A stretch of 64,000 nt of DNA, taken from the NCBI GenBank assembly GCA_963800045.1, contig CAWCZN010000003.1, positions 260,730 through 324,729 on the forward strand, read 5' to 3'. Source of the DNA: an uncultured Acidobacteriaceae bacterium. Lineage in GTDB: Bacteria > Acidobacteriota > Terriglobia > Terriglobales > Acidobacteriaceae. The position numbers and the translations under genes were made by a program. The notes below the pieces were generated by a model. The model searched no databases, was not told the DNA's origin, and worked only from the letters and a program-made list of their open reading frames with translations. Shown here in pieces: positions 10,779-57,396 of the stretch (position 1 is the first letter of the stretch; the number at the start of each line of letters is the position of its first letter).

Positions 10779-12540
10779 TGTGCCCTTGAGCTGGGCATAA
10801 GGAACGGCTAACGCGTCTGTGTATTCGGATCTGACCTGACACTCCTATTGGTGGACCAAATCACTCGGACGAGCAGTCGGCGTTCCGTACTTGTGGCGGC
10901 GAAGCCGGTGTAATTCCTCAAGAGCACGGGATGAGCGTTATACGTCACTCTAACACTGTTTCCTTGTCAAGCACATTTTGAGGCACCCACAGCATCCGCT
11001 CCTAAGAGCGCGCCATTTCGCTCTCATGGAAAACCCCGTGCCATCATCAACCAAAGGCTCGCGTGTAAATCTCTCGGGTGGAACTCAGTTCGACCCAACC
11101 ATCTCTCCGGTCGCAACATCGATCATGATTACTACTTCGAACTCCCTCTTAGCAGGGAGCGGAAGGTCCAATCAAGTGGGCGGTGATTTACTGCACACCA
11201 TGGACGTGTTCGAACTCTCCCGCGTGCGAACCGAATTTTGCAACCTGTTCGTAATTCCATTCCTTGCGCCACATCCAGAACAAACTGACAGCGAGTTTAC
11301 GTGCCATGGCTACCTTAGCGATCCGGGGATCCCGCCGCATGGCCAGGTGTAAATACTTCCGTCGCCACTCCTGGTCGCAACGGACAGCCGCCTGGGCTGC
11401 TTCCACCAGCAAGAAACGCAACAGCGTGTTGCCCTGCTTGCTGATATGCCCCAACCGCTGACGATTGGCGCTGGAGTCTTCACAGGGAATGAGTCCCAAG
11501 TAGCTGCCAATCTGCTTGCCGCAAGCGAAACGCTTGGTTGATCCGATGATCAGCACAAAGGCGAGGGCAGTCAGGGGACCAACCCCGGGATGCGTCATCA
11601 GCCGTAGCACCTCGGGTCGTTTTTTTGATTCCTCCTCCACCGCCGTGCTCAGTTCATCGATGGTGGGGTTCAAGCGGTCTAGCACGTCCAACAAGTCTTG
11701 CCGGCGTCGGCTGGCCCAAGGTAATAACACGAAGGACTCCAACTGGGCGCGCCCCGACTTGCTCCACAGTGCTTTCTTGCGTCGCACTCCTTCATTCATA
11801 GCCACAGCCTGCAACTGATTCAAGACTCGTGTCCGTATCTGCACCAGCCGATGCCGATGCCAAAGCAGTTGGCGCAGATCCCGATTCTCCGGGCTCGGCA
11901 CCCATATGCGTGGAAAGCGATCTTCCACCAGCAGCTTCAGCAGCAGCTCCGCATCCAACCGGTCGTTCTTCTGCTTCCGCACTCGCGCAGCCTTAATCTC
12001 TGACGGATTGCCAATCCATAGCTCGAAACCCAGCTCCGCCAGTAACCGTTCGAACCAGCGGGCGTGCCCTGTGGCTTCTATCCCCACGCGCACGCTTACA
12101 ACTCGTAGCTTTAAGTCGCGGTAAAACCTTTCAGCTTCGCCGTCCTTGCGCAGCAGTCGTCGTTCACCGCTCTCTCCAGTCCCTGAATCGACAAACGCGA
12201 TTTGCTGAACGCTCGGGTGATAATCGCAACCTATAATCAGCATGTTCGGCTCCTTCCTCCCGAGCCTTGGTTGCTTGGCAGCTATCAAGTCTACTCACGT
12301 CGAGGGAGCCGACAGTGTTATGAAATCAAGTGGAATGCTAATGCGGTTGCTGGATACTTGCCCATTTTCCGGAGTAATCTTCCAGAAGCCGGCTTTGTGG
12401 CCAATATCACGAGCAAATGCCGCCGAGGATCATATCCGGCTTAGTTTAGTTAGGTTAGGACACGAGTTGATATGGCTCTTTGACGGAGCGTCACCCGTTC
12501 GCGAGTAGGATGAGAGACGAGCAAGCCTAAAGGAGCCGGT
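10779..12540 (-). mobile_element. Interval containing an IS110-family insertion sequence (exact ends not determinable from one copy)
   Basis: The transposase gene 11188..12243 sits alone between two chromosomal genes. The IS110 family lacks classical terminal inverted repeats, so the ends cannot be read off a single copy. The element must lie inside this intergenic interval. Confidence 0.6.
11188..12243 (-). CDS. IS110-family transposase (DEDD RuvC-like N-domain plus Transposase_20 C-domain)
   Basis: MLIIGCDYHPSVQQIAFVD and VGIEATGHARWF form the DEDD_Tnp_IS110 N-domain. LMTHPGVGPLTALAFVLIIG...GSYLGLIPCEDSSANRQRLGHISKQGNTLLRFLLVEAA is the C-terminal domain with the conserved Ser region. The start at ATG 12243 has GGAGGAAGGAG upstream. 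Confidence 0.92.
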   Translation of the reverse strand: MLIIGCDYHPSVQQIAFVDSGTGESGERRLLRKDGEAERFYRDLKLRVVSVRVGIEATGHARWFERLLAELGFELWIGNPSEIKAARVRKQKNDRLDAELLLKLLVEDRFPRIWVPSPENRDLRQLLWHRHRLVQIRTRVLNQLQAVAMNEGVRRKKALWSKSGRAQLESFVLLPWASRRRQDLLDVLDRLNPTIDELSTAVEEESKKRPEVLRLMTHPGVGPLTALAFVLIIGSTKRFACGKQIGSYLGLIPCEDSSANRQRLGHISKQGNTLLRFLLVEAAQAAVRCDQEWRRKYLHLAMRRDPRIAKVAMARKLAVSLFWMWRKEWNYEQVAKFGSHAGEFEHVHGVQ

Positions 12541-24130: not shown

Positions 24131-24366
24131 TCGACTGCGCCCGCCACCTGCACCGTTCGAGCGCCAGGTTCAGAAATTGGTCGGCGTTGCAGTATCCCAT
24201 TCGGAAATCACAGCCTAAGCTGTAAGGAGATTAGCCAGGGAACCCATCAGCCCTGAATGGGCGGCATGGATTTCCCACAATGGGAGACGGGGTAGATATT
24301 GCGGGACTAATCCCTACTATTTCGATAGACATAGTAGTAAGCTGCTGTCTTTGGAGACTGCAGCCG

Positions 24367-24867
24367 ATGAAGATTTCACAGAAGGGGCTCTACGCTTTGC
24401 AGGCCATGATGCGACTAGCCAGACGATATAACGAGGGCGCTATTCGTATACGTGAAATTGCTTATGACGAAGGTCTGCCCGAGAAGTTTCTCGAACTCAT
24501 CCTCCTCGAACTGAAGAATGCGCGGCTGGTGGAAAGCGTTCGTGGGGCCAAGGGCGGTTATAGGCTTCGCCGGCCTCCCTCGGAAATCTTTCTCGCCGAG
24601 ATCATCCGCTTGATGGACGGAGCGCTGGCGCCATTTGGCGACGCCGAGCAACTTCGTACCCTGATCGAGAACGACGTGGAGCATCGCGCTTTATACCAAG
24701 TATTCCTGGACGTGCGCGATCAGGCTGCAAGGATCTTCGAGAACACCTCTCTCGCTGACATCATCGAGGACGTCGCCCCGAATCACAAAAAAAAGAAGCG
24801 CGAAGTCGAGCACACCGCACCGCGTGTGTTGCCGATGATACCGGCGCGCAATCGTAATGAGAAATGA
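24367..24867 (+). CDS. Rrf2-family transcriptional regulator, cysteine-free
   Basis: MKISQKGLYALQAMMRLARRY...IREIAYDEGLPEKFLELILLELKNARLVESVRGAKGGYRL is the Rrf2 wHTH. The 166-aa sequence contains no Cys, so it cannot ligate an IscR/NsrR-type cluster. Confidence 0.9.
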   Translation: MKISQKGLYALQAMMRLARRYNEGAIRIREIAYDEGLPEKFLELILLELKNARLVESVRGAKGGYRLRRPPSEIFLAEIIRLMDGALAPFGDAEQLRTLIENDVEHRALYQVFLDVRDQAARIFENTSLADIIEDVAPNHKKKKREVEHTAPRVLPMIPARNRNEK

Positions 24868-24894
24868 TTCGTAAGAACCGTTGCAGGAGAACGA

Positions 24895-25743
24895 ATGACG
24901 AACTCTCGTGTATTAGATCAGCCCATCGCGGCCAGAACCCGCAAGATTGACACCATCACTGTCCTTGGGGGACAAGGCAAGAACGGTGCTCCCGAACCAC
25001 TGCGTCAGCTCGATCTTGAAATGGGCGACATCGTGAGCATTGTCGGACCCACCGGCTGCGGTAAAACGACGTTGATCAACGACATCGAGTTGTACGCCAA
25101 CGGGGACACTCCGACGCGACGGACCGTTCTGATTAACGGCGAGCCTCTTCCTGAGGACTACTTGTCGGACCCTTCTTCCAATCCAATCGCGCTGATTTCC
25201 CAGCACACAAACTTCCTCTCCGATCTCCCGGTAAATGTGTTTCTGGAGACGCACGCTCGTATTCGCGGCGTAGCTTCGCCGACTCGCGCGGTGGAGGAAA
25301 CGGTGGAATTCGCCAATCAACTTACCGGCGAACCCATCATCCTGGAGAACGCGATGACCGAGCTTTCCGGGGGGCAGACTCGGTCGCTGCTGATTGCGGA
25401 CGCCATCATCATCGGCAACTCGCCGATCATCCTCCTTGACGAAATTGAAAATGCCGGAATTCATCGAACCCGCGCTCTAGAAATGCTCAAGGGCTACGAG
25501 AAGATCTTCATTTTTGTCACCCATGATCCGCGCATCGCCCTGCTGTCGGATTACCGCATCGTGATGCGTGACGGGGCCATGCAGAAGCTGATCGTCACCA
25601 AGGATGAGGAAAAGGAGGTCGCCCAAGAGATTCTCAAGCTTGATGACCTCCTGCTGGGGCTTCGTCAGCGTATTCGCCTTGGCGAGGAACTGGGAGTCGA
25701 ACAACTCCACGGACAGCTTCGCGATCTGGGATACATCGCCTGA
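24895..25743 (+). CDS. Soluble ABC-type ATPase with no cognate permease nearby
   Basis: Walker A GPTGCGKTT, Q-loop ISQH, signature LSGGQTR, Walker B ILLDEIENAG, H-loop VTHD. The neighbours are a regulator and a GTPase, not membrane proteins. Confidence 0.85.
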   Translation: MTNSRVLDQPIAARTRKIDTITVLGGQGKNGAPEPLRQLDLEMGDIVSIVGPTGCGKTTLINDIELYANGDTPTRRTVLINGEPLPEDYLSDPSSNPIALISQHTNFLSDLPVNVFLETHARIRGVASPTRAVEETVEFANQLTGEPIILENAMTELSGGQTRSLLIADAIIIGNSPIILLDEIENAGIHRTRALEMLKGYEKIFIFVTHDPRIALLSDYRIVMRDGAMQKLIVTKDEEKEVAQEILKLDDLLLGLRQRIRLGEELGVEQLHGQLRDLGYIA

Positions 25744-25750
25744 GGGAATC

Positions 25751-26452
25751 ATGAAACTGGTTATTTGTGCGGGACCTCCTACGTGTGGCAAGACCACTGT
25801 TTTGCGGCAAGTCACCAAACGCCTTTTAGCTAAACAGCGCAAAGTCAGTTTTCTGAAGATCGACGTGCAGTATGCCGACGAAGACGAGATCTTTCAGAAA
25901 GAGTTTTCCATCCCGACGCGCAAGGTTTACTCCGGGGAGCTTTGTCCCGATCACTGTACTGTGATGGTGCTTGGCGATGCATTGCATTGGGCTGAGCAAA
26001 GCGGTGCAGACCTCTTGATTGTCGAGACAGCTGGGCTGTGTTTGCGCTGCTCCCCCTACGTCGAAGGACTTCTCGGGCTGGTCGTACTAGAAGCCACCAG
26101 CGGTATGAACCTTCCGCGCAAGATCGGACCGATGCTTTCGTTGGCCGATGTGGCTGTCGTAACCAAGATCGATCTGGTCTCGCAAGCCGAGCGCGAGGTT
26201 TTCCGGGCTCGCATCCAGGAAGCGGCGCCGGCGACGGCAATCGTTGAATCCAACGCGCTCTACGGTATTGGGATCGAGCCCCTGGTACGCGGAATCGAGC
26301 GCGCTGCCGAAGTTGAACCTCCTCTGTTCCTGCGGGGCAATCCACCCATCGGTACTTGCACTATCTGTGTCGGGAAGAAGGAGATCGGCTGGCAGTCACA
26401 CTTCGGAGTTGTCCGAGCGCTGGAGAACCAGAACTTCTATCGCGGGGAGTGA
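25751..26452 (+). CDS. G3E-like P-loop GTPase (HypB/UreG/CobW-type metallochaperone fold), Cys-rich
   Basis: MKLVICAGPPTCGKTT is the Walker A. LIVETAGL is the Walker B / switch II. VVTKIDL is an NKxD-like motif. Cys/His motifs are ELCPDHC, GLCLRCSPY and GTCTICVGKK. The start at 25751 has GAGGGA upstream and lies 7 nt after the previous stop. Confidence 0.75.
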   Translation: MKLVICAGPPTCGKTTVLRQVTKRLLAKQRKVSFLKIDVQYADEDEIFQKEFSIPTRKVYSGELCPDHCTVMVLGDALHWAEQSGADLLIVETAGLCLRCSPYVEGLLGLVVLEATSGMNLPRKIGPMLSLADVAVVTKIDLVSQAEREVFRARIQEAAPATAIVESNALYGIGIEPLVRGIERAAEVEPPLFLRGNPPIGTCTICVGKKEIGWQSHFGVVRALENQNFYRGE

Positions 26453-26455
26453 GAT

Positions 26456-27658
26456 ATGGCGGACCGCATCTACTTCGATCACTCCGCCACCACGCCGCTG
26501 GATCACCGGGTTGCGATGGCCATGGACCTGGCGGAGGAGACATTCGGTAATCCTTCCAGCCTGCACTCCGAGGGACGCCATGCCCGTGCCCAGGTCGAGA
26601 AAGCGCGAGGCCAAGTGGCTGCGCTAATCCACGCGAACCCGGAAGAGATCATATTTACATCGAGCGGCACCGAGTCCGACAACCTGGCTTTGCTGGGTGT
26701 CTTCCGCGACAGCGATCAAAGCTCTCCGGGCCACATGATCACGAGTGCAATCGAGCATCCCGCGATTATCGAGACTTGCCGGTTTCTGGAGCGGACTGGT
26801 GTCGAAGTGACGTGCCTCGGTGTAGATGCGAACGGACTCGTGGATCCCGATGACCTGACGAAGGCGATGCGGCCCGAAACTCGGCTGGTTTCTATTATGG
26901 CTGCGAACAATGTGGTGGGAACTCTGCAGCCCATCGCAGAATTAGCTCGCATCACGAAGGAACATGGAGCCCTGTTTCATACCGATGCAGTGCAATCCAC
27001 AGGCAAAGTGCCGCTCGATGTGACTCGGATACCGGTAGACATGGTGTCGATGTCGGCCCATAAGCTGCATGGCCCGAAGGGTGTGGGCGGGCTCTTCGTT
27101 CGCGAGAATCTTCGAAAAGGTGGTCGCAACGGAGCACGCCTGCAGCCGGTGGTCTTCGGCGGAGGACAAGAATACGGCCTTCGCTCTGCCACCGAGAACG
27201 TCAGTGGAATCGTCGGATTCGGCGCGGCGGCTGAACTGGCCGCCTCTGAGATGACCGGCGAAGCGGCGCGACTGGTCCAGTTGCGTGAATACCTGTCAGA
27301 CGGTCTGCGAGAGCAACTTCCTCAGACCTACCTGATCGGCCATCCCTTCAAGCGGCTCCCCGGGCATCTTTGCCTGGGATTCGCCGGGCAGGAGGGGGAG
27401 GCGATCCGATTATTGCTCAGTCTGGACGAAGCCGGCGTGGCGATTTCATCCGGCAGCGCTTGCAGTGCCCACAAAGTATCCGAACCTTCATATGTTCTGC
27501 TCGCGATGGGATTCAATCCTATCCGCGCGCGAGGTTCTCTTCGTATCACCCTTGGACGCTTCAATACGAACGCGGAAGTCGACCGCCTTCTTGAGATTTT
27601 GCCGCAAGTGGTGAATTCACTCAGGCCGGTCGCCAGTTACGCCGGCTTTAGCCGCTAA
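26456..27658 (+). CDS. nifS: Cysteine desulfurase, NifS/IscS type (class V aminotransferase)
   Basis: YFDHSATTP, FTSSGTESDN, SMSAHKLHGPKG (PLP-lysine context) and SSGSACSA (active-site Cys loop). 400 aa. The start lies 3 nt after the GTPase stop. Confidence 0.92.
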   Translation: MADRIYFDHSATTPLDHRVAMAMDLAEETFGNPSSLHSEGRHARAQVEKARGQVAALIHANPEEIIFTSSGTESDNLALLGVFRDSDQSSPGHMITSAIEHPAIIETCRFLERTGVEVTCLGVDANGLVDPDDLTKAMRPETRLVSIMAANNVVGTLQPIAELARITKEHGALFHTDAVQSTGKVPLDVTRIPVDMVSMSAHKLHGPKGVGGLFVRENLRKGGRNGARLQPVVFGGGQEYGLRSATENVSGIVGFGAAAELAASEMTGEAARLVQLREYLSDGLREQLPQTYLIGHPFKRLPGHLCLGFAGQEGEAIRLLLSLDEAGVAISSGSACSAHKVSEPSYVLLAMGFNPIRARGSLRITLGRFNTNAEVDRLLEILPQVVNSLRPVASYAGFSR

Positions 27659-27676
27659 TTAAGGGAGATGCTTACG

Positions 27677-28378
27677 ATGTCTGAAACAGCACAAGTGAAA
27701 TTGCCCGGCTTGGACTGCGGTCTCTGCGGATTCAAGCACTGTGATGATCTGGAGCGGGAGCTTGTTCTGCGCCCGGAACTTCTAAAACGATGTCCCCAGA
27801 TTCCGGAGGCAGCGGCCAGCGTTGGTTCGGCAGGCGCTAACCCTTCAAGCGGGACGTCTGTGGCGTCGTCCTCAATGGCTTCTGCTAGTCCTCGCTCTAG
27901 CAAGCTACCGCCATTCGTCGATAATCTGGGCCGAGATTTTGATTTCTATCTGGAGCATTTTCCTGAAGATCCCGGGCCGCGCGAGATCATCATTCCTCAT
28001 AACCCAATGATCACTCGGGAACTCGATATCAAGAAAGGCGACATTCTGATCGGCCGCCCATTGGGTATGTCGTGCGGTTGTCCCATCACACATTGCGGCT
28101 TCGTCGTGGAAGTGGATCACCGCACCGGTGTAATGGTCTGGTGTGTCACCGGTCCGCTGGCGCCGCGCGCGCAGGGCTTCAAAGACTTGGGATACTACAT
28201 TGCAGAAGGCTACGAAGGATTGATCACCGAGACCAAGTCCGAGATCAGAATTGGCTGCCGCTACTACTTCCAACCTCGGATGTGCATGTTGCAGTGGCGC
28301 CACTCTGGGCTGGTGAATTACATGAACCGAACCAAAGAAGGAATCCAAGTGAGGGTCGAAGGGCTCTGGATCGGCTAG
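27677..28378 (+). CDS. Fe-S-motif protein: RnfB/CdhD-like N-terminal CxxCxxxxC...C motif, Ala/Ser linker, and an unassigned Cys-rich C-domain
   Basis: LPGLDCGLCGFKHCDDLERELVLRPELLKRCPQ, then a low-complexity linker (AAASVGSAGANPSSGTSVASSSMASASPRSS), then a ~170-aa domain with GMSCGCPITHCGF, WCVTG, IGCRYYFQPRMCMLQW. The ORF track start is 27668. The ATG at 27677 has better spacing from AAGGGAG. Confidence 0.75.
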   Translation: MSETAQVKLPGLDCGLCGFKHCDDLERELVLRPELLKRCPQIPEAAASVGSAGANPSSGTSVASSSMASASPRSSKLPPFVDNLGRDFDFYLEHFPEDPGPREIIIPHNPMITRELDIKKGDILIGRPLGMSCGCPITHCGFVVEVDHRTGVMVWCVTGPLAPRAQGFKDLGYYIAEGYEGLITETKSEIRIGCRYYFQPRMCMLQWRHSGLVNYMNRTKEGIQVRVEGLWIG

Positions 28379-28442
28379 GTCTTCGTTGTTGAATATCGTC
28401 TTACAGTCAACTCCACAGGTACGTGTTAAGGAAAGGGGCTTC

Positions 28443-28808
28443 ATGGATACCGCACAGATAATTCGTCCGATACGAGATGTTCGTCAACGTCTTCATGGCA
28501 TCGAGGCTGTTCAATTCACTTGGGAACCTGGAACGCGAACGATTAAACACAGACATCACTCGCGTGGAATCGTTAAGATTCAGGAGGGCTGCCTCTTTGA
28601 GATTAAGGATGGCGTGAAGACCTACTACACTGCGGGCGACACTCTTCTCGAAGTTCCAAACGAGTCAGTTCACATCGTCGGAAACGATACAAATAGGATG
28701 GCTCGCAGTTTCCACGTGTACTGGCCCGAACTGACGATGGATGAGCTTCCCGACGATGACTCCGACGCCGTTGCTCTCGCAACGCCACCTCCACCTGAAT
28801 TGCGGTAG
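28443..28808 (+). CDS. Small cupin-domain protein
   Basis: 121 aa from the ATG at 28443 (AAGGAAAGGGG upstream). It contains RTIKHRHHSRGIVKIQEGCLFEIKDG and VHIVGND, typical of a single-barrel cupin. It is the last gene of the Rrf2-NifS operon. Confidence 0.7.
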   Translation: MDTAQIIRPIRDVRQRLHGIEAVQFTWEPGTRTIKHRHHSRGIVKIQEGCLFEIKDGVKTYYTAGDTLLEVPNESVHIVGNDTNRMARSFHVYWPELTMDELPDDDSDAVALATPPPPELR

Positions 28809-40534: not shown

Positions 40535-41896
40535 TCAATGCAAATTCAGGCAACCCGCTCCTGAATCGCCACCAGTAACGCTGAAGCGCATTGACCGAAA
40601 ATCGAAACTATAGCTTGCAAAGAGGCCAAGCACATTCTGGCCGATGTTTCCGTAGAATTCGTCTGTCGAGTTGCTATGCTGGGTCAGAATATCCACCGAC
40701 TGCGGCCTCACACAGTGTCCGTCAACACTTGCCACGAGGTCGACTACTTCATACGCCATAGCGACGACGCTGCCACCGGCGCCTAAAATCTCCAATGTGC
40801 GCAACTGGTCAGCATCTATGCTGGTTTCACCCTCACCCAAAAACGCCCTGGAGAGAATGGTTCCGATCGCCCCCGTATCGACTGTGAATAGCCGATCTCC
40901 GTGCCCGAGATCGGCGATCACCACCGGCGTAAACTTCTCCAGAAACATATTGTGTGACGTGGAATTGCCCGGCCTCGTCACAAGTGAATCAGCAAAATGT
41001 ACGCTCGCGCCTTGAACGACGCTTACTTCGCCCAATGCCATAAGAACCGGCAGCCCCAAGCACCCTTCGATTCGGTAATTCATCGATGGGAAGGTTAAAT
41101 CGGAATCCTCAACCACCAGTACCGCCACGTTCCGGATCAGTGCGGGTCCTAGCTGAATCTGGGGAATGATAGCGACCCGGACTGGGACAGGATGTCCGGA
41201 GGATGCCGCCGCATCGGCGGTTCTGGTGGAAACCGCCAGACCCAGCCGGTCAGCAACTGATCTGGATACAACGGACAGATTCGCGCCCGTATCGAGGATC
41301 CAGCTTCCGGTATAAGTCCCCACATTGACCGGAACCCGAAGTAGGCCAAGAGAATCGTTGCTGCCGCTTAGGGCGAAGGGGCCACTACTCTGAATGGTCT
41401 GGGGTGGTGCTCCGTCCAGCAACGCCCAGCGTGCTGCCTCGTGGCGCGCATTACAGGTAGATTCTGTATGGTTTGCCTCCGAGACGAGGGCTGCCTGCAG
41501 GTACGTGTTTGCGGCCTTACCATAACGGAAGCCTCTTGCATAATTGTCGGCAAGCGTACATAGTGCATATTCTGCATGCCCGGGATTGCTAATCAGAAGG
41601 CCTGAAATAAGCGGCTGAAGAAGGAGTGTCGATCGGTCCACCAGGTTTATTCGATTGGCCAACACTCCTTCGAAGTACGTGCGATCTTGCGCTGTGAGTC
41701 GAGCCTCTCGGGCCGTGAGTTCAAGTTCAAACTTGTCGTATTGCTTTCGTGCAAGCAACAGATCGAGATCTGGAGACTTAGCTGGCGGCTGCTCTGCAGA
41801 CAACGGACAGCTTGCGCAGATTAAGATCGCAATTACACCACCCGAGACGATACATCGTATGATTGCATTCAGTCGCGAAATAAAGATTTTTGCCAT
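40535..41896 (-). CDS. Exported protein with two retropepsin-like aspartic protease domains
   Basis: The N-terminus has a hydrophobic signal/anchor (GGVIAILICASCPLSA). There are two D-T-G active-site motifs: GSWILDTGANLSVVS and RLFTVDTGAIGTILS. A helical N-domain precedes them. Confidence 0.72.
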   Translation of the reverse strand: MAKIFISRLNAIIRCIVSGGVIAILICASCPLSAEQPPAKSPDLDLLLARKQYDKFELELTAREARLTAQDRTYFEGVLANRINLVDRSTLLLQPLISGLLISNPGHAEYALCTLADNYARGFRYGKAANTYLQAALVSEANHTESTCNARHEAARWALLDGAPPQTIQSSGPFALSGSNDSLGLLRVPVNVGTYTGSWILDTGANLSVVSRSVADRLGLAVSTRTADAAASSGHPVPVRVAIIPQIQLGPALIRNVAVLVVEDSDLTFPSMNYRIEGCLGLPVLMALGEVSVVQGASVHFADSLVTRPGNSTSHNMFLEKFTPVVIADLGHGDRLFTVDTGAIGTILSRAFLGEGETSIDADQLRTLEILGAGGSVVAMAYEVVDLVASVDGHCVRPQSVDILTQHSNSTDEFYGNIGQNVLGLFASYSFDFRSMRFSVTGGDSGAGCLNLH

Positions 41897-42109
41897 GTCT
41901 CATCAGATCATTATCATGGCATGCGCAATGTAAATTCTGACTAAGTTCTAGGTGAGTCTGAGGTAAGTTCCTGCGAGCGGAGCTGGGATGACACCCCCTC
42001 CCTTGCGAAGTGGTCGCCGAACAAATCCGCAGTGTTTGAGAGCGCACAGCCTGTGGATTCGAGTGGCATACCCTCATCGTCGTAAGGCTATGGCGTGCGC
42101 GGCCGCTCG

Positions 42110-42253
42110 TCACATATCTTCACCCATCGCCTGTGAGCGCGTGCTAGGTACGTTTCCGGTCGCTGGGAATCGCGACGCCCCAAAGGCGGACAGCTCGTCG
42201 GCTTGAAAGCCGCCTCGCTGATCCGAGGAGAGCAGCTGGCGGCTCACCTTCAC
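42110..42253 (-). CDS. Possible mini-ORF (47 aa) 3' of the radical SAM gene
   Basis: A GTG start is preceded by GGAGGAACCCT. The product is (M)KVSRQLLSSDQRGGFQADELSAFGASRFPATGNVPSTRSQAMGEDM. It has no Cys, I recognise no homology, and it could be a chance ORF. Confidence 0.2.
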   Translation of the reverse strand: MKVSRQLLSSDQRGGFQADELSAFGASRFPATGNVPSTRSQAMGEDM

Positions 42254-42386
42254 AGGGTTCCTCCAGAAGTGTGGGGCCTTTCTCACACCGGCAGCCAGAA
42301 CGGTCTCTTCAGCGGCCTGCTCCGTTCTTAAATCCCCCGACAGCAGCCAAGGAAGCCGTCGCGAACTGAGACTCTCGTCACGGCGC

Positions 42387-43784
42387 CTACCACTCGAACG
42401 ATATCGTCGTGTCGCGATCCCAGTGCTCCCACAGAAACGCATCGTGACGGTCGTCGGCGATGAGGCGCAGGGCGTAGCGCACCTGGTCTTCGTACAATTC
42501 GCAGAAAGCGCCGGTACGGTCCATGCCGCCATTCATCTCGTAGGCTTCGGCAGGGCAGGGAGAGCCGCAAAAGTGGCGTACGGCGCAGCGGCGACACGGA
42601 TCGATATCTTCGACCTTGCGTCCGGTGACCAGCGCGAAGGGCGGCGTCGCCAGGATGTCGTCGATCGAATCGCGGAACAGGTTGCCGCCTTTGAAACTCG
42701 GCAGGCCGAGAAATTCGCTGCACGGGAAAACGTCGCCATTGGCCGAGAGTGCAAAAAAGCAACGTCCGCCGCCGCACGGGGAGATGTCACACATCAGGCG
42801 GCGAGCCTGTGGCGCCAAGATCGAGATCAGGATGTTCGCGAAGTTCGCGACGACCATGCGGCGTCCCGTCTCGCGATAAAGCTCCTCGGTACGATCCAAC
42901 GCCGCGAGGTAAAAGCGGCTGATGTCTTCGTCCTTCGGCTTGATGTCGCGCGCGCCCTGGCGGGTGCAGCGCACCGGATTCAACATGCAGGTGGTCACGC
43001 CGCGTTCGTGAAAGAAGTCCACTGTCGGGATCAGCTTGTGCACGTTCTCGCTAGTGATGGTGCAGATCACGCTGTAGTTAGGGTAGCCTCGTAGCTTCTC
43101 CATCGCAGCCACGACCTTGTCGTAGATGCTGTGCCTGTCCCAGGTCTTGCGCGTGCGCGTAACGATTTCATCAAGCGATGAATCGAGGGACAAACCGACA
43201 GCGACACCCAGCTCCATCAGCACGTCGTATTGCGCGTCGGTCAGCACCGTGCCGTTGGTCTGGATGCCGAAGCGGAAGTCCTCGCCGTAGCGTTCGAAGG
43301 CAGGTAGCATTGCGTCCCAGTTCAAGGTTGGTTCGGCACCATGGAAGACAATTTGCGGTCGGAAGCCTCCGGGTAGGTGAGCGCAAAAATACTGTTTCAG
43401 AATCTCTAGCGCCGACAACACATGTTCGACCGGCATGTGAATGCCATCCTTGCGCATGGACTCCGGCAGGTAGCAGTACGAGCAGTTCAGATTGCAGCGC
43501 TCGGTAGGATTGAAGTATACGGCAGAGGGGCTGACGTTGAAGCGGAAGCGATGCATCTCTTCGGCGAATGCGGCGGCTTTTTCGCGATACTGATCGAGGA
43601 ACGGTCCCGGCGTGAGCGCTTCTCCGAGTTTGTCTTTCTGAATCAGAGCCCAGAAGGCGGTGTCGGGGTCGACGACGCCGATGTAATTGTCGTGGCCGAT
43701 GTCGATGGGTTGCAGGGTGCCGCCGATGCCGCTGTTGAAGTGCAGGCCGCGCGATGACGCTTGGGATTTCGTTGCGATATTCAT
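42387..43784 (-). CDS. Radical SAM enzyme with a C-terminal SPASM (twin auxiliary 4Fe-4S) domain; putative peptide maturase
   Basis: FNPTERCNLNCSYCYLP (CX3CX2C) begins at about residue 97. The SPASM signature is CDISPCGGGRCFFALSANGDVFPC ... CRRCAVRHFCGSPCPAEAY ... AFCELY. The preferred start is ATG 43784 (MNIATK) with GAGGA 8 nt upstream; the track start is 43799. Confidence 0.9.
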   Translation of the reverse strand: MNIATKSQASSRGLHFNSGIGGTLQPIDIGHDNYIGVVDPDTAFWALIQKDKLGEALTPGPFLDQYREKAAAFAEEMHRFRFNVSPSAVYFNPTERCNLNCSYCYLPESMRKDGIHMPVEHVLSALEILKQYFCAHLPGGFRPQIVFHGAEPTLNWDAMLPAFERYGEDFRFGIQTNGTVLTDAQYDVLMELGVAVGLSLDSSLDEIVTRTRKTWDRHSIYDKVVAAMEKLRGYPNYSVICTITSENVHKLIPTVDFFHERGVTTCMLNPVRCTRQGARDIKPKDEDISRFYLAALDRTEELYRETGRRMVVANFANILISILAPQARRLMCDISPCGGGRCFFALSANGDVFPCSEFLGLPSFKGGNLFRDSIDDILATPPFALVTGRKVEDIDPCRRCAVRHFCGSPCPAEAYEMNGGMDRTGAFCELYEDQVRYALRLIADDRHDAFLWEHWDRDTTISFEW

Positions 43785-43861
43785 TGGGCAAATCCTCATT
43801 CAAGATCTCGACGCGGCGGATGATGAGAACCATCCGCCGCCATGCAATGCCGTTCCGGCGT

Positions 43862-54941: not shown

Positions 54942-56522
54942 TCAGTGAAATTCCCATTGGATGAACGGCTCTTTCAGATCGGACATGGCGTTGACGATCA
55001 GCTCCGCCAGCCCGCCGTAAAGAATTCCAGATTTCTCCCACACTCCGTAGTAGCGGAACAGGTCACGGAACTGGCCTTTGCAATTCGAGCAGGGCGCGCA
55101 AACGTATTTCTTCGTCCGCGGATCGGGGCAATCCACGAAGGCATCCAGCACCTGTTTCAGTTTCATGCGACCCGAGACTAAGAAGCGCCAGTCTTCGAAG
55201 TTGTAGCCGGACATGATGGCGAAACCTGAGCCGCCACCGCAGCAGTAATTCTCGACGCCATGCGGAGTCATCTCGCGAAACTGTGGACAGATGGCACGCA
55301 GGATCTCGCGCTGCGGTTCCACAATGCCCATCATGCGCACCATGTTGCAGGGGTCGTGAAGTGTGACTGGGAAGTCGTTGCGCGCAGGGTCGAGTTTCAG
55401 ACGGCCGCTTCGTACAATGTCGCGCAGCAAGACCAGAGCGCTCTCGCGCGGAATATTCAGGTCGCTGCTCAAAATGCGGTCGGCAGTAACCATCGACGCC
55501 TTGTGTCCGTGGCCACATTCGCCGAGGACGATCTTTTTGACCTTGAGCTTCTTTGCCGCTTCCGCCTGGCGCACGGCAACGCGCGCAAATTGGACGTCGT
55601 CATACCACAGCCCGTAGTTGACGCTGTCGTAACCCATCAGTTCGCTGGACATCGTCCAGTTGATCCCAGCGGCTTCGAGGATGACAGCAAAGGCCATGGG
55701 ATTTTCCGGCCACGCCAGTATCTCTCCTGCATTGTGGATGAGCAGAACGTCGGCGCCTTCCTTATCCCACGGTGTTTGGATATTGAGTCCGGTCTGCTCG
55801 CGAATCTCGTCGTCGAGGAACTCGATGTTGTCGCGCACGGCCGCAGCTTTCATGCCGGTCGACGAGCCGGTGCGCAGTTGCAGCATGGAACCTTTGTCGT
55901 GAATTTCTTTGGGCGCGATACCCAGTTCCATGCTGAAGAGCTTGCGGATCTCGCGGGTCAAAAGCGCGTTGTCGACGCCCATCGGACATGTTTGCGCGCA
56001 GCGGCGGCACAGGGTGCAGCGGTAAGCCGACTCCAGCAAGCGGCACAGCGTGGCCGCGTTTACATCGATGGCTTCGCCCTTCAGCCGCGCCAGCAATTTC
56101 CCGCCCGAGTGTTGCTTGATCAGGCGGCGAAAGACTTCGCTGCGAAAAGTTGGGCGGTAAACTTCTTCGCGTCCGCTGCCCACGTAAACGGGACAGGCCT
56201 CGACGCAGGTCTGGCAGCGCGCGCAATGATCCATCGACAGTTGCAACTGTTTGAGGAACGGCCAATTGTTGTCGGGGCTGAGAAGCTTCTCGATGCCGGA
56301 GAGAAACGCGGAGATGAAGTTCTCTTCTTCTTCGGCGGTTTTCGGAGCGCTGAATCCGAGCGCCGAGAAGCCGTCGAGTGAAGCGTCGTACCTTGGATCG
56401 ACTTGCTTGCGCTTGGGCAGATCAGAAACTTTGTTGTACGGCGCGGGCAGCGGAATCAGCTTGTCTGGATTCAGCTCGCCGAGCATCCCGCCTGCCGTCG
56501 CCATGTCTTCGATCTTAAGCAT
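54942..56522 (-). CDS. dsrK: DsrK/HdrD-like Fe-S protein (two 4Fe-4S ferredoxin motifs plus CCG domains)
   Basis: CARCQTCVEACPVY and CTLCRRCAQTCPMG are CxxCxxCxxxCP motifs. Cys-rich CCG-type motifs are ECGHGHKA, LHDPCNMV, NYCCGGGSGF and CAPCSNCKGQF. The internal ATG at 56522 (MLKIEDM) overlaps the stop region of the upstream gene. The track start at 56690 would overlap it by 176 nt. Confidence 0.82.
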   Translation of the reverse strand: MLKIEDMATAGGMLGELNPDKLIPLPAPYNKVSDLPKRKQVDPRYDASLDGFSALGFSAPKTAEEEENFISAFLSGIEKLLSPDNNWPFLKQLQLSMDHCARCQTCVEACPVYVGSGREEVYRPTFRSEVFRRLIKQHSGGKLLARLKGEAIDVNAATLCRLLESAYRCTLCRRCAQTCPMGVDNALLTREIRKLFSMELGIAPKEIHDKGSMLQLRTGSSTGMKAAAVRDNIEFLDDEIREQTGLNIQTPWDKEGADVLLIHNAGEILAWPENPMAFAVILEAAGINWTMSSELMGYDSVNYGLWYDDVQFARVAVRQAEAAKKLKVKKIVLGECGHGHKASMVTADRILSSDLNIPRESALVLLRDIVRSGRLKLDPARNDFPVTLHDPCNMVRMMGIVEPQREILRAICPQFREMTPHGVENYCCGGGSGFAIMSGYNFEDWRFLVSGRMKLKQVLDAFVDCPDPRTKKYVCAPCSNCKGQFRDLFRYYGVWEKSGILYGGLAELIVNAMSDLKEPFIQWEFH

Positions 56523-57396
56523 GGCGTCCGGCTCCTCGTCCCTCGGCATCGGCGACCGCTTGCGACCACGTCTCGCCTTCCCCCGCGATGTGAGGGGCCG
56601 ACCAGGTAACATGCCGCCGGAGACGTCCGGCAAGTACAGTGTTCGCGGAAGAGACGTGTGCCGCCGGCACGTCGTCCCAGCGCACGCCATGCCAGGTGAA
56701 GAACTTCATGTAAGCGTGGGTCATGTGGGTGAACGGAAAGTAGGCAAGAAAGAACGCGAGAAGCATCAGATGCAAGCTACGAACTGGCGACGCGTCGGAC
56801 ACCAGTGGGACGAAGTTCAACCCTTGAGCAAATTGGCGAGCGATGCCGGTCAGCGACAATCCTCCGGTCACGAAAAACGCCGCGAGGAACAGCAGGTTAA
56901 ACTTTGCTGCGCGCGTCGTGTACGACCGCAGTCGCAGCAGCTTCGTCCGCAGAACAAACAAACCCAGGCTGCCGAGACAGCCGGACACACAACCCAGACC
57001 ACATGTGTATATCGCGAGCCGGAGCAGCATCCCCGAACTCAGCAGCCAACTTGCTGCCATCAGCAGCGCTGCTGCGATGTAAAGGTATAGCCCCCAGTGC
57101 AGCAGCCAGGACCATAGCCACAGCTCGCGAAAGTTCTTGCGCACCGAGTGCAGCAGCAGAACTTCCTGCGCCATGAAGGCCAATTCACCGGTGTGACTGG
57201 ATTCCGCGCGCTTGGTCCACCAATCGGTTTCCTCGAAGTAAGAGCCGCCGTAGCGCTGACGCTCGCAGGGTCCTTTGGGAATGGGGTACAACTCCCATCG
57301 TAAGGGGCGGGGCGTACGCAGCGTTCGCATCACGCGGACGAAGTTTCCAGCGAGGAAGATTGCGGCAGCGATCGCGAGAGTGGGAACGAGCAACAT
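56515..57396 (-). CDS. dsrM: DsrM/NarI-like membrane di-heme cytochrome b family protein
   Basis: 293 aa with about 6 TM helices, including MLLVPTLAIAAAIFLAGNFV, LWSWLLHWGLYLYIAAALLMAASW and SLHLMLLAFFLAYFPFTHMTHAYMKFF. Conserved His residues in the helices fit the respiratory nitrate reductase gamma-like (NarI/DsrM/HdrE) family. Confidence 0.75.
   Translation of the reverse strand: MLLVPTLAIAAAIFLAGNFVRVMRTLRTPRPLRWELYPIPKGPCERQRYGGSYFEETDWWTKRAESSHTGELAFMAQEVLLLHSVRKNFRELWLWSWLLHWGLYLYIAAALLMAASWLLSSGMLLRLAIYTCGLGCVSGCLGSLGLFVLRTKLLRLRSYTTRAAKFNLLFLAAFFVTGGLSLTGIARQFAQGLNFVPLVSDASPVRSLHLMLLAFFLAYFPFTHMTHAYMKFFTWHGVRWDDVPAAHVSSANTVLAGRLRRHVTWSAPHIAGEGETWSQAVADAEGRGAGRHA

Follow-up and report, generated by a model that had tools for sequence, protein, structure and literature searches.

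Described systems related to the cassette

The SUF system (SufS-SufE/U plus SufBC2D) pairs a cysteine desulfurase with a soluble ABC ATPase that has no transport role and with a beta-rich acceptor protein carrying Cys, and nucleotide-driven steps are presumed to act on its scaffold. The same appears to apply to the gene cassette analysed here, which lies in a 64-kb window (the whole stretch of DNA under study). However, the cassette contains no SufB or SufD homologue, its ABC protein aligns to E. coli SufC only around Walker A, its desulfurase is of class I (NifS/IscS-like) and not SufS, and it adds a G3E GTPase and a PF04060 [4Fe-4S] domain, the latter in an Fe-S-motif protein that we call FeSX. 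The GTPases of nickel insertion into urease and [NiFe]-hydrogenase, UreG and HypB, belong to the same cobW/HypB/UreG fold family as the cassette GTPase, which also has the ExxG and (N/T)KxD motifs and a CPxH aligned to the metal-binding CPH of UreG. In contrast to these, the cassette GTPase falls far short of the equivalog cutoffs for HypB and UreG. It has two further invariant motifs, CLRC and CTIC, along with a C-terminal tail that is conserved, and is always partnered by the ABC ATPase and FeSX, in loci without UreE/F/D, HypA, urease or hydrogenase genes.

Minimal NIF and ISC arrangements with IscR (NifS-NifU, IscS-IscU, 'MIS') likewise place a NifS/IscS-type desulfurase gene behind an Rrf2 gene in a single operon, and the best match of the cassette desulfurase is NifS. 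The cassette nevertheless has no U-type scaffold, A-type carrier, HscAB or ferredoxin, its Rrf2 protein lacks the cluster-ligand cysteines, and NifS is dispensable in about 30% of cassette loci. On the regulatory side, the closest parallel is the CymR regulon of Bacillus and Staphylococcus (cymR-yrvO pair; targets cysK, mccAB and ssu): the cassette Rrf2 is Cys-free with CymR as its best equivalog, its gene is adjacent to a NifS-like gene just as cymR adjoins NifS-like yrvO in B. cereus (table in PMC3519770), its operator is also found upstream of cysK, and cystathionine beta-synthase, gamma-lyase-like and ssu-like genes are among the cassette neighbours. It differs in that the protein scores under the CymR cutoff (100 vs 195) and the hosts are not Firmicutes. 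Since IscR and CymR motifs are alike (PMC3828012), the motif alone cannot decide between the two. Finally, the N-domain of FeSX has the C-x2-C-x4-C...C pattern of the corrinoid Fe-S protein (CFeSP) large subunit (AcsC/CdhE) and of the RnfB N-domain (PF04060), but only this ~35-aa domain is in common: FeSX has no TIM-barrel, corrinoid or Rnf part, and its C-domain is unrelated to either protein.

We found no description of the cassette in the searchable literature and regard it as an undescribed, tightly conserved gene set. The misfit with ISC, SUF, NIF, Hyp, Ure and CooC systems that a preliminary description of the locus had pointed out holds for the testable features.

Organization and conservation of the gene set

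The six co-directional genes named in the preliminary description were all recovered as ORFs (Table 1), separated, from Rrf2 to cupin, by 27, 7, 3, 18 and 64 nt. The upstream neighbour of the set encodes a Ser/Thr kinase-TPR protein, the downstream neighbour a BamA-like protein. Pfam and NCBIfam profile matches confirm the domain assignments of the preliminary description (the cupin match being weak). The translations contain every motif it had listed, namely GPTGCGKTT, LSGGQ and ILLDE in the ABC ATPase, GPPTCGKTT, VETAG, TKID, CPDHC, CLRC and CTIC in the GTPase, and CGLCGFKHC...C and SCGCPITHC in FeSX; Rrf2, said to be Cys-free, has 0 Cys. None of the operon genes encodes a permease, binding protein, IscU/NifU, SufB/D, HscAB or ferredoxin, again as first read.

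Table 1. Features of the cassette locus (positions in the 64-kb window)
Feature	Position	Strand	Evidence and remarks
Putative Rrf2 operator	24314..24341	+	inverted repeat and PWM match
Rrf2 gene	24367-24867	+	ORF; Pfam Rrf2 1.3e-30; Cys-free, CymR-like; accessory member
ABC ATPase gene	24895-25743	+	ORF; ABC_tran 1.5e-15; soluble; core member
GTPase gene	25751-26452	+	ORF; Pfam cobW 1.9e-11 (cobW/HypB/UreG); G3E P-loop; core member
NifS gene	26456-27658	+	ORF; Aminotran_5 2e-79; class-I desulfurase; frequent accessory
FeSX gene (Fe-S-motif protein)	27677-28378	+	ORF; PF04060 'FeS' 9e-7; core member
FeSX N-terminal 4-Cys [4Fe-4S]-type domain	about 27701-27796	+	
FeSX C-terminal beta domain	27905-28375	+	predicted; novel
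Small cupin-like ORF	28443-28808	+	Cupin_2 19.5 bits, under the 27.2 cutoff; outside conserved module

We surveyed 82 distinct related loci; 70 related loci were informative in that they had enough upstream sequence. The conserved unit is a trio of soluble ABC ATPase, G3E GTPase and FeSX: its genes are adjacent and in the same direction in 69 of the 70 informative loci, which span more than 12 phyla, the FeSX gene being directly preceded by those for the ABC ATPase and the GTPase. This arrangement is far beyond chance, and the grouping is not fortuitous. NifS accompanies the trio in 48/70 loci (69%), 46 times before FeSX and twice after it, and Rrf2 does so in 25/70 (36%). A cupin homologue is absent from all 82 loci, which makes the cupin a lineage-specific neighbour outside the module. 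What had been described as a six-gene module is therefore a three-gene core with NifS and Rrf2 as frequent accessories. As about 30% of loci have no NifS, sulfur donation inside the operon is not obligatory; one protein (P0343) may be a fragment of a NifS-FeSX fusion.

The gene set was found in Acidobacteriota, Planctomycetota, Chloroflexota, Omnitrophota, Desulfobacterota, Nitrospirota, Verrucomicrobiota, Alphaproteobacteria and other lineages, FeSX relatives being present in 451 of 185,579 species genomes. It occurs in many anaerobic bacteria and some archaea, and the host genomes are mostly MAGs of peat, fen, sediment and digester samples, from habitats that are largely anoxic. Between phyla the trio proteins are 52–97% identical, and the trio is retained even around distant FeSX relatives of 28–48% identity. 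The GTPase, present in 69/70 loci, is 68–97% identical across phyla, nearly always exactly 233 aa long among the matches listed, and 79% identical in a Methanoregulaceae archaeon; judged by these sequences, the trio is under very strong purifying selection. Overlaps of 4 nt between genes of the module are frequent (e.g. loci L003, L004 and L090), which fits subunits made in fixed proportion.

Properties of the encoded proteins

The ABC ATPase, found in 69/70 loci at 56–89% identity, keeps its Walker A, signature, Walker B and H-loop motifs across 47 homologues and reaches no NCBIfam cutoff. In the PDB it is matched best by domains of the MacB/LolD/MJ0796 type, and the list of its 60 top matches does not name SufC. 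Among neighbours in the related loci, no permease or binding protein is conserved beside the ABC gene, and we infer, solely from this missing transporter partner, that the protein is of a non-transport type.

The GTPase represents a new subfamily of the G3E family, UreG/HypB-like in character. It is far below the HypB, UreG, MeaB and CobW cutoffs in NCBIfam (44 bits against 121 for HypB, 29 against 204 for UreG and 23 against 241 for MeaB), and its closest PDB proteins are UreG (2e-6) and then HypB. Seven cysteines are invariant (C6 and those of CPDHC, CLRC and CTIC): CPDHC and CLRC are at switch-region positions, the CP(D)H portion aligning with the Ni-binding CPH metal site of UreG, and CTIC lies in the conserved C-terminal tail. 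The desulfurase has NifS TIGR03402 as its best NCBIfam match (4e-134; 447 bits vs a cutoff of 530), and is a class-I (NifS/IscS-type) enzyme; its translation contains the PLP-Lys motif SAHKLHGPKG and the active-site loop SSGSACS.

FeSX consists of a CFeSP/RnfB-type 4-Cys N-domain (weak best PDB sequence match: CFeSP 4djd_C), a flexible Ala/Ser/Pro-rich linker, and a Cys/His-rich C-terminal beta domain with the invariant motifs GRP..SCGCPxTHC and CMLQWRHSG. Across 2233 homologues the invariant residues include C14, C17, C22, C39, H94, H108, C133, C135, H139, C140, C203 and H209. In the wider family C135, H139, C203 and H209 are kept in at least 90% of aligned sequences, so that the widest family conserves only 2 Cys and 2 His. 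The family is small, with only 145 representatives at 50% identity among 1.84 billion proteins. No Pfam or NCBIfam model matches the C-domain, and its confident AlphaFold model (pLDDT 94.2) yielded no PDB fold match (best Foldseek E = 0.03, TM at most 0.31), suggesting a new Cys/His-rich beta domain. In the model the Cys/His residues are placed at loop-to-strand junctions, and of all C-domain blocks the SCGCP loop alone is predicted with mean pLDDT <86, as would be expected for a ligand-dependent site. Of the proteins that the preliminary description had left unassigned, then, none fell into a characterised family: neither the FeSX C-domain nor the GTPase was placed by these searches, and the ABC protein is not SufC-like.

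Regulator and operator

The best NCBIfam equivalog of Rrf2 is CymR (100.5 bits vs a cutoff of 195), and IscR-type clustered Cys are seen in only 3 of the 31 Rrf2 homologues linked to the module. An inverted repeat, CTACTAT-N10-ATAGTAG, at 24314-24337 occurs once in the 64-kb window (0.02 expected) and overlaps a match (24320-24341; 19.8 bits) to a PWM built from related loci, placing the putative operator 26–53 nt upstream of the Rrf2 start codon. In the related loci the motif gave 65 matches vs 1–6 in shuffles, nearly all just upstream of the module's Rrf2 or ABC genes, where the conserved operator overlaps the -10 box. Other sites precede cysK (3 loci), an SsuC-like permease with nitrogenase-like genes, and a second NifS. 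Rrf2 is a CymR-like regulator, and the operator ahead of cysK and sulfur-acquisition genes makes the cassette a member of a cysteine/sulfur regulon. The preliminary description had not seen the CymR-like character of the regulator or its cysK-type sites.

A proposed machine and its alternatives

Our preferred, though tentative, reading, which we hold as a possibility somewhat short of even chances, is an NTP-driven machine, distinct from ISC, SUF, NIF, Hyp and Ure, that assembles or inserts a metal-sulfur centre and acts on FeSX. The interpretation first offered, a metallocluster or sulfur-insertion module, is to this extent partly supported; as to product and target, we infer the 'assembly or insertion machine'. 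The workings of G3E GTPases (UreG, HypB), SufC and NifS are established, and the mechanism draws on them. The unit would be a machine of three soluble proteins, in most cases transcribed along with a NifS-type cysteine desulfurase of its own, which would draw sulfur from cysteine as persulfide. The GTPase would dimerise like UreG/HypB and hold a thiophilic metal or nascent metal-sulfur unit on interface CPxHC/CLRC cysteines until GTP hydrolysis frees it. The acceptor would be the FeSX C-terminal beta domain, in which two loops bear the family-wide Cys-x3-His and Cys-x5-His pairs and, in the main clade, extra cysteines. The tethered N-terminal [4Fe-4S] domain could give electrons for persulfide reduction or centre maturation, and an ABC ATPase dimer could use ATP to drive conformational changes of the FeSX complex in a SufC-like manner, though it is no SufC homologue. 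FeSX would be either a scaffold handing the centre on or itself the end-user redox protein. Expression would be set by the Cys-free CymR-like Rrf2 repressor acting on the module's -10 box; as the operator is common to the module and cysteine-supply genes, the machine would be made together with the latter.

The invariance of the 4-Cys PF04060 domain, which resembles the CFeSP large-subunit N-terminus, and of the C-domain Cys/His set argues for such a machine. So do the conservation and gene overlaps of the trio, its strong purifying selection, the frequent presence of NifS within the operon, the GTPase cysteines and their UreG alignment, the modelled placement of the FeSX Cys/His residues, the lack of a conserved permease and the operator matches. 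Against it, about 30% of loci lack NifS, the ABC ATPase has no specific SufC similarity, and the 2 Cys and 2 His of the widest family would be equally at home in an ordinary electron carrier with a simple redox site, mononuclear or Rieske-like. The hosts also almost certainly carry housekeeping SUF or ISC systems, so that the need for a further general Fe-S machine is not evident. Furthermore, regulon membership fits sulfur scavenging equally well as cluster assembly.

Scavenging is the core of an alternative that we consider unlikely but worth weighing, namely salvage or trafficking under sulfur limitation. Here a persulfide bound to FeSX, its sulfur drawn from cysteine by NifS or from elsewhere, would be reduced to sulfide by the FeSX [4Fe-4S] domain and passed to cysteine/homocysteine synthases or other sulfur acceptors, with the NTPases gating transfer. 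The CymR-like regulator, the operator common to the module, cysK, sulfonate-transport and nitrogenase-like genes, and the recurrent neighbours are consistent with this: CysK, CysE, cystathionine beta-synthase, gamma-synthase or lyase, cysteate synthase, a sulfate-binding protein, SulP, SsuC/SsuA-like proteins and a YeiH-type PF03601 (Cons_hypoth698) membrane protein, a type annotated as putative sulfate exporter. In Pararhodospirillum oryzae the module is also divergent from a marBHDK-like operon, and in relatives such operons are induced by sulfur limitation (PMC13474568; bioRxiv 2026.08.20.746119). However, persulfide relay or reduction is not known to require a GTPase of the G3E metallochaperone type or an ABC ATPase, and the desulfurase would use up cysteine, the regulon's own product. 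In addition, flanks beyond the core are highly variable (the commonest Pfam family is found in only 5 of 137 same-strand neighbours), and the trio is found on its own in housekeeping contexts as well (e.g. L088).

The seven invariant GTPase cysteines, with CPDHC and CLRC at switch-region positions and CTIC in the tail, could instead bridge an Fe-S cluster in a dimer resembling the nitrogenase Fe protein or other SIMIBI-class reductases. GTP-coupled low-potential electrons would then enter FeSX, which as a small reductase with two centres would act on a sulfur compound or other substrate. FeSX does join an electron-entry [4Fe-4S] domain to a second Cys/His site, the module lies beside nitrogenase-like C-S-cleaving systems in 3 loci, and the MAGs come from largely anoxic habitats. 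Yet we know of no G3E GTPase with a redox-active bridging cluster, the ABC ATPase and NifS are left unexplained, and no conserved neighbour suggests a substrate, which makes this reading quite improbable in our view.

The nitrogenase-like genes adjoining the module in 3/82 loci (L084, divergent from marBHDK-like genes; L027/L087, co-directional with NFL D/K-like genes; L060), together with the fact that G3E GTPases normally serve a distinct target enzyme, could also point to a dedicated maturase for a complex metalloenzyme encoded elsewhere (nitrogenase-like Mar/NFL or other Fe-S enzymes), with FeSX as adaptor or carrier. We give this only a slim chance: no target gene is conserved beside the trio in the remaining loci, common membership in sulfur islands explains the adjacency equally well, and the Mar papers make no mention of trio genes, active Mar in heterologous production having needed MarB only, without mention of trio-type factors (PMC12552129).

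Finally, that there is no functional unit, the ABC protein being the ATPase of an importer with membrane parts elsewhere or the genes part of Dnd/Ssp-like DNA-sulfur defence, is scarcely credible: the best ABC matches are indeed transporter ATPases, NifS scores well against SspA and DndA models and one locus has a restriction-modification gene nearby, but the SspA/DndA matches reflect just general IscS-family similarity, PADLOC has no match for the GTPase or FeSX, no plasmid copy of the module was found, no transport partner is conserved, and chance juxtaposition is effectively refuted by the synteny of overlapping trio genes across phyla.

Synteny and spread of the cassette

Six co-directional ORFs occupy positions 24367-28808, with gaps of 27, 7, 3, 18 and 64 nt. 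Profile searches against Pfam/NCBIfam bore out each domain assignment that the preliminary description had made from the sequence, every motif it quoted was found in the translations, and the Rrf2 regulator contains, as claimed, no cysteine at all. A survey of gene neighbourhoods, which the same description had suggested, was made by tblastn with the six window proteins and gave 70 informative loci, each extending at least 3.3 kb upstream of FeSX, the Fe-S-motif protein. Genes for the ABC ATPase and the GTPase lie co-directionally and directly upstream of FeSX in 69 of the 70, while NifS adjoins FeSX in 48 (69%; before it in 46, after it in 2) and Rrf2 lies upstream of the cassette in 25 (36%). 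Identities to the window proteins were 68-97% for the GTPase (median 74), 56-89% for the ABC ATPase, 51-81% for FeSX and 51-76% for NifS. Neighbouring cassette genes frequently overlap by 4 nt. The trio of ABC ATPase, GTPase and FeSX is conserved and probably co-translated, and inclusion of NifS is frequent.

Distant FeSX relatives (28-48% identity) have a cobW-type GTPase adjacent in all four loci examined and an ABC ATPase adjacent as well in three of them (L086, L088, L090); the short contig of the fourth, L085, begins inside the GTPase gene. Since the trio is kept even around these distant relatives, we regard it as the conserved unit. The proposal of a six-gene unit holds insofar as there is a conserved, undescribed cassette. 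Its unit, though, consists of the trio alone; NifS and Rrf2 are frequent additions, and the cupin is unrelated. Although the cupin had been counted as an operon member, tblastn found none in any of 82 distinct related loci, and we rejected it. The sole informative locus without upstream NTPase genes is L035, on the Eremiobacterota chromosome OY969579.1, where FeSX (64% identity) has a partial NifS-like match beside it.

Coordinates of features in the window and in related loci of other genomes (L numbers)
Sequence	Position	Strand	Feature
Window	11188-12288	minus	IS110-family transposase (DEDD_Tnp_IS110 + Transposase_20)
Window	24320-24341		Putative operator; one PWM site, inside a perfect CTACTAT-N10-ATAGTAG repeat
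Window	24367-24867	plus	Rrf2 regulator
Window	24895-25743	plus	ABC ATPase
Window	25751-26452	plus	G3E GTPase
Window	26456-27658	plus	NifS-type desulfurase
Window	27677-28378	plus	FeSX
Window	28443-28808	plus	Cupin-like ORF; weak cupin match in profile search
Window			Flanking genes of the operon: Ser/Thr kinase-TPR protein and BamA-like protein, both unrelated to the cassette
Window	41778-42113	minus	Small ORF
Window	42110-42532	minus	Small ORF
Window	42387-43796	minus	Radical SAM/SPASM-domain protein
Window	54942-57396	minus	HdrD-like Fe-S protein (Fer4 dicluster + CCG domain, 581 aa) and 292-aa ORF
L004	1-6172		Arsenic-resistance-like set followed by cassette
L063	294-872	minus	Small cupin-type ORF
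L084, Pararhodospirillum oryzae NZ_BJZO01000093.1	133-4873	minus	NifB-like radical SAM, NifH-, NifD- and NifK-like genes
L085	3-3877		Distant FeSX relative with its neighbours
L090	4268-6472		Cassette and divergent heavy-metal P-type ATPase

A protein database of 5.8 billion clusters holds 2233 FeSX homologues, the best 120 of which are at least 62% identical, and when a single genome of each species was scanned, FeSX relatives turned up in 451 of 185,579 species. Among the phyla represented in the best 80 loci are Acidobacteriota, Planctomycetota, Chloroflexota, Omnitrophota, Desulfobacterota, Nitrospirota, Verrucomicrobiota, Lentisphaerota, Bdellovibrionota, Hydrogenedentota, Armatimonadota, Eremiobacterota and Sumerlaeota, together with Beta- and Alphaproteobacteria; most of the hosts are MAGs, obtained from peat, fen, sediment, groundwater or digesters. 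Acidobacteriaceae and Terriglobales MAGs hold the loci closest to the window cassette, and the window itself has an acidobacterial look. GTPase homologues also occur in Chlamydiota and, at 79% identity, in a Methanoregulaceae archaeon. Selection on the cassette, which spans more than 12 phyla, is exceptionally strong. The cassette is abundant in metagenomes from peat, fen, sediment and digesters, where sulfur and metal availability controls carbon turnover. A tblastn search of PLSDB found nothing on plasmids. Since two cultured Pararhodospirillum species carry the FeSX gene (P. oryzae with the complete cassette), the question of function is open to experiment.

FeSX combines a PF04060 domain with a novel beta domain

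FeSX has 233 aa, and its only family match, to PF04060, is limited to residues 9-40. PF04060 is the four-cysteine domain of RnfB and the corrinoid Fe-S protein; FeSX differs from RnfB and the CFeSP large subunit in that the Rnf ferredoxin, TIM-barrel and corrinoid domains are all missing. A PDB profile search (hmmsearch) likewise matched the N-domain alone, weakly, to the CFeSP large subunit. Throughout the main FeSX clade the N-domain residues C14, C17, C22 and C39 are invariant, as are H94, H108 and two loops, GRPLGxSCGCPxTHC and FQPxxCMLQWRHSG. The family is compact: HMMER, run exhaustively against 1.84 billion representatives, returned only 145 clusters, and in the most divergent members the conserved core is down to GRP...GCPxxH and FxPxxCMxxxHSG, that is, two Cys and two His. 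The C-domain matched no Pfam family in any of 22 diverse members tested and no NCBIfam model, and neither Pfam (2025) nor NCBIfam (2026) has a curated family that covers FeSX or specifically names the GTPase.

A diverse 50-sequence alignment gave a confident, all-beta AlphaFold model of the C-domain (pLDDT 94.2, pTM 0.87), for which the best Foldseek match among 350,542 PDB chains reached only E = 0.03 and TM 0.31. As modelled, the domain is thus without a known fold match among PDB chains, in agreement with the earlier statement that it could not be assigned. A model of full-length FeSX based on the shallow alignment A1 reached a pLDDT of only 54; its Foldseek matches were meaningless and are superseded. 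The SCGCP loop is the sole C-domain block with a mean pLDDT below 86, and the Cys/His residues sit at loop-to-strand junctions, a placement that would be expected of a ligand-dependent metal or cluster site. FeSX joins a [4Fe-4S]-type domain, through its linker, to a novel beta domain of the Cys/His kind, and the cassette adds a protein domain with no match to a curated family or solved structure.

The linker between the two domains is of low complexity and variable length. Most non-acidobacterial FeSX proteins have an extra CxxC, sometimes CxxCxxxC, in it (alignment A1, columns about 60-100), which is missing from the window protein and its close relatives (equivalent to window 27800-27900). 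One library protein, P0343, is a 314-aa fragment that joins the C-terminal part of an Aminotran_5 desulfurase, PF04060 and the start of the FeSX C-domain in a single ORF; it may represent a fusion of NifS with FeSX, or else an artefact of assembly or of a frameshift.

The GTPase, ABC ATPase and desulfurase

The GTPase scored 44.3 bits against PF02492 (cutoff 20.7), which places it in the G3E superfamily (cobW/HypB/UreG/MeaB). Its P-loop, ExxG and (N/T)KxD motifs, in the forms GPPTCGKT, VETAG and TKID, are conserved across 45 homologues, the C-terminal tail is invariant, and nearly without exception the proteins are exactly 233 aa long. Seven cysteines are invariant, in C6, CPDHC, CLRC (after the VETAG Walker B) and CTIC. 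Equivalog scores were low: 44 bits for HypB (cutoff 121), 29 for UreG (cutoff 204) and far under the cutoff for MeaB. Members of the COG0523/CobW subfamily are marked by a metal motif, GCxCC, and by CobW_C as their C-terminal domain, whereas the window GTPase has CPDHC in place of CxCC and no CobW_C match. It is most aptly classed as a new subfamily of the G3E GTPases. Alignment with H. pylori UreG (4hi0) sets CP(D)H against the CPH motif that binds Ni in UreG, and the GTPase has motifs corresponding to the interface metal site of UreG (CPH) and HypB (CH and a further Cys beyond Walker B); it thus carries UreG-like metal-site motifs and a putative metal site. UreEFD/urease or HypA/hydrogenase partners were absent from the six operon proteins and from the labelled recurrent neighbour clusters, and no partner or target of UreG/HypB was among the commonest neighbour Pfam families.

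The ABC ATPase retains the Walker A, signature, Walker B and H-loop motifs and reached no curated NCBIfam cutoff. It resembles MacB/LolD/MJ0796-type nucleotide-binding domains, and its best 60 PDB matches are all transporter nucleotide-binding domains. No conserved permease adjoins the ABC gene in the 69 loci (of 70) that have it, and BPD_transp_1 was found in just 5 of 137 same-strand neighbours. A SufC-like role by homology was rejected: BLASTP to E. coli SufC aligned only 22 residues, around Walker A.

The desulfurase belongs to class I, with 447 bits for NifS (cutoff 530) and 378 for IscS (cutoff 548), under every equivalog cutoff; the SufS models gave 152 bits (cutoff 475) and 106 bits (cutoff 661). 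Its active-site loop, SSGSACS, is of the class I type.

Comparison with known systems

Known metal-sulfur machineries are few, namely NIF, ISC, SUF and their minimal forms, with Hyp, Ure and CooC as insertases. SUF differs from the cassette in having a SufC-type ABC protein and a desulfurase with class II SufS features. SufB/SufD were absent from the window operon, its flanks and the labelled recurrent neighbour clusters of the 82 loci, and no Suf family was among the 25 commonest Pfam families of the 137 same-strand neighbours. As to a U-type scaffold (IscU/NifU N-domain), there was no NifU_N match in the six proteins and no recurrent neighbour of this kind; L090 has a separate IscS-IscU pair 6 kb off, on the opposite strand. 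Wherever this could be tested, the cassette did not show the features by which ISC, NIF, SUF, Hyp, Ure, COG0523 and ABC transporters are defined, which agrees with the misfit to the first five noted in the preliminary description. A search of the full-text literature found no published description of it, and we know of no described system in which ABC and G3E families work jointly.

A putative operator links the cassette to cysteine genes

The closest NCBIfam equivalog of the window Rrf2 is CymR (100.5 bits, cutoff 195); IscR gave 63 (cutoff 208). IscR would be expected to have three Cys cluster ligands, whereas the window protein has none, and only 3 of 31 module-linked Rrf2 proteins have an IscR-type clustered Cys set. 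Upstream of the module the loci have a sigma-70-like promoter in common, and a motif of ~22 bp, close to the palindrome TCCTAYT...ARTAGGA, overlaps its -10 box. The exact repeat preceding the window Rrf2 occurs once in the 64-kb window and does not recur in the other loci, and we therefore used a PWM, built from 16 sites, for detection. At a threshold of at least 17 bits it gave 65 hits over the 1.17 Mb that the loci comprise; block shuffles gave 1-6. These represent 55 distinct sites, nearly all just upstream of Rrf2/ABC genes and often two or three per locus. Further putative operators lie upstream of cysK-like genes (L060, L068, L079), of a second NifS gene (L053), and of an SsuC-like permease gene followed by two nitrogenase-like genes (L027/L087).

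The operator resembles what we take to be the B. subtilis CymR box. Although the CymR score is under the equivalog cutoff, the Rrf2 protein is Cys-free and the putative operator is shared with genes of cysteine synthesis; the cassette would thus appear to be controlled by a CymR-like Rrf2, through a putative operator common to cysK. No single motif served all loci: a Gibbs search of all 72 upstream regions reached only 10 bits where shuffles reached 8. Planctomycete loci are without Rrf2 and without its operator. Upstream of the ABC gene they have in common another palindrome-like element, of the CCGTCATATATGACGG type (L002, L015, L016, L025, L032, L046, L055 and L066), and in several loci, e.g. 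L045 and L056, a sigma-54-dependent activator is encoded just upstream, which suggests that the cassette has another regulator there. In L063, from a Thiobacillaceae MAG, the cupin-type ORF lies beside an operator site and a divergent cassette Rrf2, and by eye it resembles cysteine dioxygenase; the window cupin could be a comparable addition, specific to its lineage.

Genes of sulfur metabolism recur beside the cassette without being obligatory there: CysK, CysE, cystathionine beta-synthase, and cystathionine gamma-synthase or lyase. SsuC/SsuA-like proteins also occur near the cassette, as do HcyBio (L090), a sulfate-binding protein with SulP (L006, recognised by eye in translations) and a YeiH-type membrane protein of PF03601, Cons_hypoth698 (L086), a type annotated as a putative sulfate exporter. 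Flanks are otherwise variable, the commonest Pfam family accounting for only 5 of 137 same-strand neighbours, so that the cassette behaves as a self-contained, mobile unit, repeatedly wired into cysteine/sulfur control.

Several single loci have other surroundings. The distant FeSX relative of L085, P0381 (29% identity), lies between the cobW-type GTPase and a genuine cysteate synthase (TIGR03844, 505 bits), which is followed by a BioF/serine-palmitoyltransferase-like acyltransferase; the arrangement looks like a sulfonolipid pathway. The set preceding the cassette in L004 comprises thioredoxin, DsbD_TM, LMW phosphatase, methyltransferase, SBF/Acr3-like and acetyltransferase genes, and L090 is archaeal-looking. 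Both contexts may reflect a link with thiophilic metals or metalloids, or may be coincidental.

Possible functions of the cassette

A desulfurase, a non-transport ABC ATPase and an acceptor recall SUF, and a G3E GTPase with an interface Cys/His site recalls the Ure/Hyp insertases; by analogy, the cassette would work most like a hybrid of the two. In kind, it would belong to nucleotide-assisted metallocentre assembly. Tentatively, though we find it plausible, the trio may act as a machine, driven by NTP, for assembling a metal-sulfur centre on the FeSX C-domain or inserting one there; NifS would supply sulfur and the FeSX N-domain electrons. The assembly or insertion machine of the preliminary description finds partial support, in a cassette that is conserved and undescribed; its mechanism is a matter of interpretation, and the link to sulfur regulation had been missed. 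The CymR-like regulon and the anaerobic organosulfur-assimilation islands point to sulfur or cysteine limitation as a physiological condition.

A persulfide or sulfide relay acting under sulfur limitation is one alternative, which we consider unlikely. A GTP-coupled low-potential reductase, with a bridging cluster on the GTPase dimer, seems less likely still. As for a maturase serving nitrogenase-like or other enzymes, the genes of L084 form a marBHDK-type nitrogenase-like operon divergent from an ABC-GTPase-NifS-FeSX cassette, and nitrogenase-like D/K genes follow the cassette in L027/L087 and lie nearby in L060. In relatives, marBHDK-type operons are part of islands induced by sulfur limitation (PMC13474568; bioRxiv 2026.08.20.746119). 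Papers on Mar (methylthio-alkane reductase) do not mention the cassette genes, and we hold a maturase to be improbable. Finally, a fortuitous grouping of genes, a component of a transporter and a defence system can all be dismissed on the synteny, the lack of a conserved permease and the PADLOC results. In PADLOC, Dnd/Ssp DNA phosphorothioation was rejected since the desulfurase alone matches (SspA, DndA); GTPase and FeSX had no match, and the ABC protein only generic ATPase hits. Such a system would call for a DndC/SspD PAPS-reductase-like protein and a DndD/SspC ATPase beside DndA/SspA.

A larger claim, which we regard as rather doubtful, is that the trio and NifS, with the new-fold FeSX C-domain, a fifth G3E subfamily, a non-transport ABC ATPase, horizontal spread among anaerobic Bacteria and Archaea and a cysteine-limitation regulon, represent an unrecognised type of metal-sulfur cluster biogenesis or a nucleotide-driven redox machinery. 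If true, it would add to the list of NIF, ISC, SUF, MIS and SMS, or define a new class of ATP/GTP-coupled reductase; past discoveries of such machineries each reshaped the view of metalloenzyme biogenesis.

Other features of the window

The IS110-family transposase lies ~12 kb upstream of the cassette. The radical SAM/SPASM-domain protein has the two small ORFs immediately downstream, and the region (41778-43799, minus strand) may be a peptide-modification cluster. The HdrD-like Fe-S protein overlaps the end of the 292-aa ORF, which has no Pfam match and an N-terminus that is membrane-protein-like in appearance.
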